A DNA stretch of 58,460 nucleotides from Tubiluchus corallicola. Lineage: Eukaryota > Animalia > Priapulida. A program made the translations under genes and the position numbers. Shown here in pieces: positions 832 to 16,689 of the stretch. Position 1 is the stretch's first letter. The number at the start of each line of letters is the position of its first letter. The notes beneath the pieces are model-generated. The model made no database searches. It was given only the letters and a program-made list of their open reading frames with translations, and was not told where the DNA came from. The stretch covers positions 1 through 58,460 of the forward strand of contig JAQGDQ010001089.1 in the NCBI GenBank assembly GCA_030141605.1, in the 5' to 3' direction.

Positions 832-3800
832 GTGTCGCTGCTGCTAATTTTTGCTTCATCAGCATCTAGTCAGCCAAACTCCATCGAAGATGGTCACTAC
901 AGACGAGGGGGAGGTGGTGGTGCGTACAGGCTCCCACCCAACCCATTCGAGGCTCTCGACAACATCCCATTGTTGGCAGAAGTTGGAGACGAGCCCTATC
1001 CCGAGTAAGAAAAACAGTTTATGGAGTGTGATGAATAGTTTTGTTAAAGCAAAATCGGGGGCCAAATATTAAACTGTAGGTCAAAACAATATTAAACTCT
1101 CTCTCTCCCTCTCTCTCCCTCTCTCTCTCTCTCTCTCTCTCTCTCTCTCTTTCTCTCTCTCTCTCTCTCTCTCTCTCTCTCTCTCTCTCTCTCTCTCTCT
1201 CTCTCTCTCTCTCTCTCTCTCTCTCTCTCTCTCTCTCTCTCTTTCTCCAACCTCTCTCTTCTCTCTTTCTCTTTCCCTCGCTCTCTCTCTTACTCTCTCT
1301 TTCCCTCTCTCTCTCTCTCTCTCTCTCTCTCCCTCTCTCTCTCCCTCTCTCTCTCCTCCCTCTCTCTCTTTCTCTCTCTCCCTCTCTCTTCCCCCCTCTC
1401 TCTCTCTCCATCTCTCTCTCTTCTCCCTCTCTTTCTCTCTGTCTCTCTCTTCTCTTTTCTCTCTCTCTCCCTCTCTCTCTCTCTTCTTCTCTCTCTCTCG
1501 GTGCTTGATTGATGATTTGAGTCTGTTTCGCGTAGTTGATATTAATTTGTTCCTTTGAAGCAGACATAAATGCAGTACTTAGTAAAGTGTAGCAATTTCG
1601 TATTCACAGAAATGATAATTCGTTTAATTCAAACTAATTTTAAACAATTAGCAAAGCCGAATCCAATCTTAAATTTTAACTCAAAACAATCTAATCTTTA
1701 AAATATTGAAAGGAAACATACATTTTTTTCAAAAATGACTTACGTGAAAGAATTATTATCACAGAAACGCAATTTCACGTTCGCGCCACTAGTTTTTTGC
1801 TGTTATATGCTTTTCGCCATTCGTTAGTTAGGCCGGCACTAGCGGCTGCTTTTCGGAAACGCGTTGTATAAAAACGGGTATTGTACCGCTCAGTTCAGAT
1901 GTGTTAGTTTGTGACAAACAACACAAGTTCGACAGCTCATGCGTGAGCGTATTTGTAAATTTAAAATTTCAATGTTTATCTTAACACTTGTCTATCTTTA
2001 GTACAACACGCGGAATATCTTACAGTAGCACTGTACTTCAATTTTCTCTTTCACAAACACGTGCAACACGCTCCTGGAATATTTTTGATGTTGAAAATTA
2101 TGTTCGTTTGTGATGTCATCACTAGTTGGACTCGCCCGTCGTTAATTAAGTCTTTACCCTATTAAAGCATTATCAGAAAAGCTTTTGCAGTGTTAATTGT
2201 TTTAAATGTATACTTTTTTATCAGACTTGAAAGTGGGGTAGTATAATGAAAAATCATCCTGTCTTGCTTTCAAATTATCATGGTTACCTACAACCCACCC
2301 CTCAGTATTAGGAATGAGCATCCGCAAATCAAACACCATTCAAATCGAATTTGCGACTCAACCGAATTCTAGATATCGATTCCAAATCGAATTCGAATTG
2401 CCTTGTAAATATTTTCGAATATATTTTCAAATACCCAACAAAAGAGCAGTAGTCTCACAAAGGTAATGCATATTGCTTGATTTTGTTGCCTGCAGTGAAA
2501 AAATTAAAAATTGTGCACAGAAAGCACAGCTAAACTGTTCTAATTGCATGAAGTTCCATACGTTTTAATGTTGAAGAACGCATGTAGTTGAAGTGCTGAA
2601 TTATTCGAATCTATAATTTTAGGTTCGAATTGAATCAATTTATTCGAATCTATAATTTTCCGGTCGAATCGAATTCGAACAAAAAACTCGTTCGAATTGA
2701 ATCAAACCTTCTAGGCTTACCCATTAAATGAACATTCACAGCGTGTCAATCTTACGCAGATACAGTTTTCTTGTATAGAATTCCTAAAATAAGGCGCTCG
2801 AGGGAAAAAAGTGAATCTATAAGCACTTTTTCTGCAGCATATAGGCAGGCCTGCCAAGTATTTATCAGTACCATGATGTACAGTCTCAGCATTTGGTTTT
2901 TATTCTAAGAAATGGCGCCTCGTTTTCTCTATTCCAGGGATGAAATCAACGCTGCATTTGACTTTAACACTTTTCCCGTGCTGAAATGTGATGACAACGT
3001 GATACAAGGTGATGTATTTGATCCCAGAATGCTGGGAGTATCTCAGACAGACATCCGCTCAAAGCGACAAGCATCTCAGTGTCGCGGAGGGTAAGAGATA
3101 TATGCTTATTGCACATTTGGGGTGGTGTTAACACAGGATAGTGCAGGGCTGAGTGGTTACGGTGGCTTACGCTTGCTGGAGTGCATGCTCGTGTGCTTGC
3201 ACTTGCTGAAGTGCTTGCTCATACTGGAGTGCGTGCCTGTGTGCTTATACGTGCTGGAGTGCATGCCCGTGTGCTTATACGTGCTGGAGTACGTGCCCGT
3301 GTACTTATACGTGCTGGAGTACGTGCCCGTGTGCTTGCCCTAGCTGGAGTGCAGGCTCGTGTGCTTGCGCTTGCTGAAGAAGTGCTTGCTCATACTGGAG
3401 TGCGTGCCTGTGTGCTTATACGTGCTGGAGTGCGTGCCTGTGTGCTTATACGTGCTGGAGTGCGTGCCTGTGTGCTTATACGTGCTGGAGTGCATGCTCG
3501 TGTGCTTACACTTGCTGGAGTGCGTGCCCGTGTGCTTATACGTGCTGGAGTGCGTGCCCGTGTGCTTGCCCTAGCTGGAGTGCATGCTCGTGTGCTTGCA
3601 CTTGCTGTAATGCTTGCCACTCACGACCCTACTTGTCACTTTCATTTTTACTGTGTGAACTTACCTCTAGTCTCATCCTGTACAAGTTCTCTGTCCAGTT
3701 TGTTCACAAGCAGCTTGTAATTGGAAATCTACCCTGAAGACATCAGCAGCTACACCCTCTTTACGTTCAATTAGTAACTAATGATGACACCAGGGGTTAA

Positions 3801-16689: not shown

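Follow-up and report, generated by a model that had tools for sequence, protein, structure and literature searches.

An old pair of predicted Spätzle-type cystine-knot genes in the priapulid Tubiluchus corallicola, with likely relatives in an unnamed arthropod family

We propose that two neighbouring genes of the priapulid Tubiluchus corallicola are old paralogues encoding predicted secreted, furin-cut and dimerising cystine-knot ligands, most likely for a Toll-type receptor, a reading in which we place moderate confidence. They lie in a stretch of 58,460 nucleotides (nt) of contig JAQGDQ010001089.1 (positions 1 to 58,460, forward strand; guanine-plus-cytosine content, GC, about 37%), which as a whole is referred to here as the window. 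The superfamily was already known, as were RefSeq predictions of the counterparts of the two genes; judged by sequence, the pair contradicts a published absence of Spätzle (Spz), fits no Spz orthogroup that was tested, and ties an unnamed arthropod family to the horseshoe-crab protein coagulogen.

Both genes have four exons on the + strand, gene 1 at 832-6045 and gene 2 at 11517-16689, and each has a counterpart in Priapulus caudatus: P0002 (LOC106807744, XP_014665685.1) is 61% identical to gene 1, and P0001 (LOC106813096, XP_014672674.1) is 58% identical to gene 2. A third P. caudatus paralogue, P0003 (LOC106813246, XP_014672863.1), is 27-31% identical to the other priapulid proteins. The exons are listed below, with Cys I-VI denoting the knot cysteines (Cys).

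Gene 1, first listed exon: 832-1004, + strand; hydrophobic end of a likely signal peptide (8-residue hydropathy 2.99) and proximal prodomain, with AG acceptor, GT donor, open frame and GC of 0.54.
Gene 1, second exon: 2938-3090, + strand; distal prodomain with one conserved Cys, R-S-K-R site at 3056-3067 and first mature residues (28 of 51 residues identical to P0002).
Gene 1, third exon: 4524-4664, + strand, 141 nt; pre-knot Cys, Cys I, wing, extra Cys and Cys II (Pfam Spaetzle 14.1 bits for this exon alone, below the cut-off).
Gene 1, last coding exon: 5889-6045, + strand, 157 nt; Cys III-VI and stop (Pfam Spaetzle 21 bits).
Gene 2, candidate start-codon exon: 10755-10775, + strand; seven codons that run up to a GTAAG donor in phase 0, located where a 60-bp repeat array ends (the best of five listed ATG-donor candidates, picked without homology or RNA support).
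Gene 2, first listed exon: 11517-11710, + strand; hydrophobic signal-peptide core and proximal prodomain, alignable to the N-terminus of P0001 (0 of 1000 shuffles as high).
Gene 2, second exon: 13443-13586, + strand; distal prodomain with the conserved Cys, R-K-K-R site at 13549-13560 and first mature residues (26 of 47 residues identical to P0001).
Gene 2, third exon: 13885-14025, + strand, 141 nt; pre-knot Cys, Cys I, coagulogen-like wing, extra Cys and Cys II (Pfam Coagulin 22.9 bits, Spaetzle 20.6 bits; 85% identical to P0001).
Gene 2, last coding exon: 16533-16689, + strand, 157 nt; Cys III-VI and stop (Pfam Spaetzle 18.1 bits).

All six internal introns run from GT to AG and all six are in phase 2, the third and fourth exons are equal in length between the genes, and the intron within the knot falls in the identical alignment column in both, in the codon after Cys II. 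The joined exons are open up to a single terminal stop (207 amino acids (aa) for gene 1, 211 for gene 2), with exon GC of 0.43-0.54 against intron GC of 0.32-0.42. In each protein, a hydrophobic N-terminus is followed by a prodomain with a single Cys, then by an R-x-K-R site and a mature part 106-107 residues long that contains nine Cys. This bears out the description given by an earlier sequence-only reading of this DNA: two spliced genes with signal peptide, prodomain, polybasic site and cystine knot, sharing intron phases and last-exon lengths. The likely signal peptide is placed by its hydropathy peak, which lies within the first 30 residues in both genes. The exon chains do not arise by chance, since P. 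caudatus proteins used alone as tblastn queries recover 7 of the 8 exons (E 1e-23 to 3e-5). The first listed exon of either gene has no ATG and begins at a phase-0 acceptor; no start-codon candidate for gene 1 was found within positions 1-831, and exon 832-1004 is the least certain part of the models, being unalignable even to P0002 (862 of 1000 shuffles as high). No exon of a third paralogue was found among the 2480 stop-to-stop frames of the window. Reads of one RNA run fell on intronic repeats alone and on none of the exon junctions, which bears on the models in neither direction.

Tandem repeats adjoin gene 2 at two places. At 10497-10775 a 60-bp array of 4.1 copies is open in the frame of the candidate start, with the ATG in the last partial unit, and at 13053-13443 a 41-bp array ends in a TTTTCAG-type acceptor, which is repeated about ten times before exon 13443.

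The two genes are supported as the products of an old duplication maintained under purifying selection, as the sequence-only reading had suggested. They are 44% identical over exons 2-4, and synonymous sites are saturated (proportion of synonymous differences, pS, 0.86 against 0.43 for nonsynonymous differences, pN). The claim that their prodomain N-termini are unalignable holds for the first listed exons (score 16; 870 of 1000 shuffles as high) but not for the second exons, which carry the distal prodomain and align well (score 78; 0 of 1000 shuffles as high). In trees of the knot region (about 110 columns, LG+G4, unrooted), gene 1 joins P0002 and gene 2 joins P0001, and a grouping of gene 1 with gene 2 is rejected by the approximately unbiased (AU) test (p 2e-7); the duplication would therefore predate the split between Tubiluchus and P. 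caudatus. P0001 and P0002 share the furin site, the mature length and the nine Cys with the window genes. They are listed on contigs that differ in length, whereas genes 1 and 2 are neighbours on one. P0003, whose listed contig is as long as that of P0001, supports the expectation of a larger family; it has no equivalent within the Tubiluchus window. All three P. caudatus proteins are RefSeq predictions annotated as uncharacterized, so that calling the pair hidden was an overstatement.

A profile built from P0001 and four window exons gave 48 hits at E up to 0.001 among 1.84 billion representatives, the three best-scoring being P0001, P0002 and P0003. One of the 48, P0021, was discarded as a false positive, a HEAT-repeat protein. 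When gene-2 exon 3 and P0001 itself served as queries in word-based homologue searches, P0001 was the sole match each time (1 of 1 and 1 of 153 candidates, respectively).

Membership of the counterparts in the Spätzle family, which had been proposed for the pair, is indicated by the Pfam Spaetzle profile (PF16077, cut-off 27), which all three P. caudatus proteins pass (41.4, 32.9 and 33.7); on the Tubiluchus side four knot exons were scanned singly instead of as joined proteins, each scoring 14.1-21 against its own half of the profile. The six Cys of the NGF-type cystine knot align in the priapulid proteins, and an AlphaFold model of P0001, made from an 82-row alignment, has a predicted local distance difference test score (pLDDT) above 90 in the knot, the prodomain being poorly modelled. 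This agrees with the NGF-type fold expected from the sequence-only reading: in VIA-align comparisons of the model, NGF comes first (Z 10.6, root-mean-square deviation (rmsd) 1.5, 88 residues aligned) and coagulogen second (Z 7.9, rmsd 2.9, 94 aligned), followed by Aedes Spz (Z 7.4, rmsd 2.5, 82 aligned), IL-17A (Z 6.2, rmsd 3.4, 74 aligned), Drosophila Spz (Z 4.9) and the Torso-complex chain 5aoq_M (Z 4.6). An IL-17 or PTTH/trunk identity was rejected on structural Z scores below the NGF group and the lack of any Pfam IL17 match for the P. caudatus proteins. With the arthropod Spätzle proteins (Spz1-6 and crustacean Spz7/8) the pair shares the signal-prodomain-knot layout, a mature domain of about 106 aa and the presence of an intron within the knot, which may or may not correspond to the conserved knot intron of most Drosophila spz genes (PMC2772990). 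The priapulid proteins also have a proline (Pro) directly before Cys V, which by our mapping would correspond to Pro136, conserved in all Spz (PMC2772990). They differ from arthropod Spätzle in having three extra mature Cys and no Cys beside Cys V (0 of 5 priapulid proteins against 41 of 42 Spz3-like ones); in this and the later motif counts, proteins of at least 100 aa were grouped by profile score, five shorter ones having been dropped, and many rows are close kin and hence non-independent. Such an extra Cys, serving a covalent dimer, occurs in some Spz paralogues and is not treated as universal (PMC2772990).

Homodimer prediction for residues 107-213 of P0001 gave a score of 0.56, against 0.04 for the best control, with at least 94% of contacts agreeing between runs and a pLDDT of 84. 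In a benchmark, 21 of 30 solved pairs but none of 23 single chains reach this mark (17 of 29 for eukaryotes, 7 of 16 for animals); memory of solved NGF or Spz dimers may be a source of the score. The mode of action that we envisage begins with secretion of the pro-protein, followed by furin cleavage at R-x-K-R, which would release the knot domain of about 106 residues. This domain would dimerise non-covalently, because the Cys next to Cys V that could form an interchain bond is absent, and the dimer would bind the ectodomain of a Toll receptor as an extracellular ligand. The prodomain Cys and an extra knot Cys are both present in four of the five priapulid proteins and both missing in P0003; this co-occurrence, with its single contrast, hints at a possible disulfide between them, which would tether part of the prodomain to the knot. 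Candidate partners are on record: priapulids have three to four Toll receptors, expressed in P. caudatus embryos (PMC8609888), and homologues of Dorsal and Pelle (PMC7056985).

Three other accounts place the proteins elsewhere. The first would make them functional neurotrophins arising outside the neurotrophin clade, that is, ligands of priapulid Trk or p75-type receptors. NGF, NT3 and NT4 head the structural matches, ESM Atlas features give NGF clusters at 0.93-0.94, and NGF itself has a furin site and forms a non-covalent dimer, as predicted for the two-fold priapulid dimer. Set against this resemblance, sequence identity to NGF is only 9-14%, the precursor is multi-exon in comparison with the neurotrophins (NGF, BDNF, NT3, NT4 and protostome NT), there is no tryptophan in the last 105 residues, the P. 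caudatus proteins have no Pfam NGF match, and Pfam recognised no neurotrophin among the 48 library hits. The neurotrophin consensus [GSRE]-C-[KRL]-G-[LIVT]-[DE]-x3-[YW]-x-S-x-C (PMC2772990) is found in none of the five priapulid proteins, nor is a relaxed form of it. The neurotrophin alternative raised by the sequence-only reading is thus not supported by motif or profile, and we consider it unlikely.

What the earlier reading missed are the closest relatives: an unnamed pan-arthropod family and, in the knot, coagulogen. The other 45 of the 48 profile hits are mostly Spz3-like proteins together with this family, which Pfam misses (none of 18 members scanned passes for any family). By the names obtained from cluster look-ups it includes beetle, termite, adelgid and barnacle proteins and one from the tardigrade Ramazzottius; a diverged shrimp protein sits next to the family. 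An alignment enriched for the family, used as query, returned 1081 proteins; the 120 of these that were listed span many insect orders, including Drosophila species, and the named ones among them are called uncharacterized, hypothetical or automatically 'Spaetzle domain-containing', or carry an unrelated label. Examples are D. virilis P0189, D. grimshawi GH17141, Apis LOC725082 and Ramazzottius RvY_18132. As an observation in its own right, P0189, P0012-P0015, P0017, P0023 and P0075-P0199 make up a set of highly conserved, secreted, NGF-fold proteins of insects, crustaceans and a tardigrade. The D. virilis member has an NGF-type knot (Z 10.5, rmsd 1.7, 89 aligned) and is 51-66% identical to most other members; immune Spz1 is far less conserved. 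TmSpz-like of Tenebrio was considered as a name for the family and rejected, having three adjacent Cys and 294 aa (PMC8509142).

Several lines of evidence make it likely that the priapulid pair belongs with this subfamily, which is conserved across arthropods and in a tardigrade. With the priapulid profile, the unnamed family scores 102.8 and Spz3 85.7, and all five priapulid proteins score higher on the unnamed-family profile than on that of Spz3. The spacing C-x4-C-x4-G-x-C of Cys II-III-IV is found in 5 of 5 priapulid proteins, 133 of 134 family members and 0 of 42 Spz3-like proteins, the pre-knot Cys in 5 of 5, 116 of 134 and 0 of 42, respectively, and a Cys next to Cys V in none of the 134. 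The motif P-x-[FY]-G and the NGF-type fold are shared as well, and the best ESM Atlas structural match of P0001 is a 51-member arthropod cluster of 253 aa whose description matches that of the D. virilis protein's best feature hit. The family differs from the priapulid proteins in a profile identity of only about 30%, in its own, Cys-bearing prodomain and in lacking the extra Cys before Cys II. In the trees, both window genes fall together with P0001, P0002 and the unnamed family to the same side of one branch (support 95/91 with 41 rows, 93/88 and 94/89 with 20 rows), and a sister grouping of the family with the pair is unrejected (AU p 0.41). Orthology to Spz3 or to Spz2+3 was rejected (AU p 0.011 and 0.046; 0.022 in a second analysis). 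P0003 forms a long, unplaced branch. The labels Spz2, Spz4, Spz5 and Spz6 on unnamed tree rows are our own assumption, and the position of two fragments so labelled Spz6-like varied.

This kinship raises a second alternative: that the proteins are secreted signals for another receptor class, such as leucine-rich-repeat-immunoglobulin (LRR-Ig) proteins or receptor kinases, common to the unnamed arthropod family. The strong conservation of that family, its lack of a Cys beside Cys V and the absence of any description of it in the literature searched would suit such a role. No positive evidence points to any such receptor, however, and to our knowledge all characterised Spz-group ligands signal through Tolls or Kek, and we judge this account improbable too.

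The third alternative starts from coagulogen and would see the pair as coagulogen-like, protease-activated clotting or gel-forming proteins of the body-cavity fluid. Among solved structures, the best sequence match is horseshoe-crab coagulogen (1AOC; P0001 E 4.5e-6, P0002 E 0.061, priapulid profiles E 1.3e-7 and 3.1e-7), with a knot identity of 31-35%, the highest of any, whereas profiles of the unnamed family and of Spz3 give no match to 1AOC at E up to 10. Foldseek lists coagulogen first, at 35% identity to P0001 against 21% for the unnamed family, and P0001 passes Pfam Coagulin (PF02035, cut-off 25) at 34.5, the highest of the 48 hits. The wing motif is shared, and the extra Cys, which lies six residues ahead of Cys II, lines up with one in coagulogen, the pattern occurring in 4 of 5 priapulid proteins, 0 of 134 unnamed-family members and 1 of 42 Spz3-like proteins. 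The match is, however, confined to the knot (profile 84-172 of 174, coagulogen chain 86-173), and a search with the prodomain exon alone did not find 1AOC. A supposed resemblance of the distal prodomain to coagulogen's N-terminal half was dropped, as no search extended the match there; whole-chain structural comparison is weak, the non-knot part of the P0001 model having a pLDDT of 50-60. Coagulogen was absent from the 48 library hits (E up to 0.001) and hence from the trees. The priapulid proteins further differ from coagulogen in having 10 Cys outside the signal peptide, and a furin site that would free the knot to form the predicted homodimer, whereas coagulogen does not dimerise to function (PMC2586362). 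The likeness itself is real, yet a slow-evolving lineage may have retained it from an ancestor, given that P0002 reaches only 17 on Coagulin, that one Spz3 protein passes it at 27.2, that the arthropod-type fragment P0041 also matches 1AOC first (E 0.17), and that Drosophila Spz4 is 29% identical to coagulogen (PMC2586362). That paper leaves the place of coagulogen among Spz and neurotrophins unresolved. A clotting role strikes us as more doubtful still than the two preceding accounts. That the exon chains are chance assemblies or dead copies, for which the invisible start codon of gene 1 might speak, is scarcely credible in view of their open frames, conserved phases, one-to-one counterparts at 58-61% identity, and saturated synonymous sites with conserved amino acids.

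We hence return to extracellular ligands for a Toll-type receptor as the favoured reading, against which several observations weigh. The nearest relatives are a family itself without a known receptor, and the best solved sequence match is to coagulogen, which is not a receptor ligand. By Z score the fold is nearer to NGF (about 10.5) than to solved Spz (3.4-7.4), and therefore shape alone does not favour Toll. Among non-priapulid proteins, the best raw scores belong to Spz3-like ones (45.2 and 43.7 bits), with the unnamed family level at 43.3. The trees have long branches and a 24-row LG tree leaves the deep order open; with no root, and with Spz1, Spz7, Spz8, neurotrophins and coagulogen not among the rows, the supported branch shows only that the pair and the unnamed family both lie outside Spz2-5, and not that they are sisters.

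Wider and distinctly more tentative is the possibility of an unrecognised, ecdysozoan-wide branch of the Spätzle/neurotrophin superfamily that would include the pair, be conserved in insects (Drosophila), crustaceans and tardigrades, and be the source of coagulogen. The gene-2 type might then be the closest surviving link between a signalling ligand and coagulogen, with a disulfide-tethered prodomain as a half-way state.

The rest of the window holds the following features.

17300-23889, - strand: gene with an Fpg/Nei glycosylase N-terminal domain, which we take to be NEIL-like; its end converges on the 3' end of gene 2.
28510-32151, - strand: SF3B3/RSE1-type gene, in which a single frame stays open for at least 1159 codons.
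34388-44673, + strand: multi-exon CoA-transferase family III gene (last exon scanned), presumably AMACR-like; near 41150-42070 a donor-side exon end is tandemly repeated.
49980-50360, - strand: exon with a weak Cfap43 coiled-coil match (20.1 bits, below the cut-off).
52433-58460: long inverted repeat with arms of 996 nt (95%) and 356 nt (97%) around a 2.9-kb centre, running past the window end; the centre holds a full 5S rRNA copy at 55482-55600.

In the published record, a 2020 survey detected Spätzle homologues in panarthropods only, and not in P. caudatus or a nematomorph, by a search that it admits was stringent, and ligand-driven Toll activation was proposed to have arisen in panarthropods or hexapods (PMC7056985). 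No Spätzle was found in a nemertean (PMC9835746) or in three lophotrochozoans (PMC2772990), and the accessible parts of three others (PMC8296651, PMC7962413, PMC8509142) hold nothing on priapulids or the unnamed family. Neither priapulid Spz-like genes nor the unnamed family turned up in our literature search, which is a weak absence, subscription papers lying mostly outside the search and the accented spelling being unmatchable. In the ESM Atlas there is a mollusc-rich cluster in which 25% of the members have a Pfam Spaetzle domain. In the nematomorph Gordionus, proteins P0008 and P0065-P0067 pass Pfam Spaetzle (P0008 at 56.8 bits), one of them with a tandem domain repeat.

Gordionus thus represents a second group in which the survey had found no Spätzle (PMC7056985). 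Spz-family proteins in priapulids and a nematomorph would push the ligand family back to the ecdysozoan ancestor, beside the known priapulid Tolls. The pair is also a candidate relative of coagulogen, the protein behind endotoxin testing, and it points to a conserved NGF-fold gene, missed by Pfam, whose possible role as one more Toll or neurotrophin-type ligand is open to genetic study in Drosophila species.

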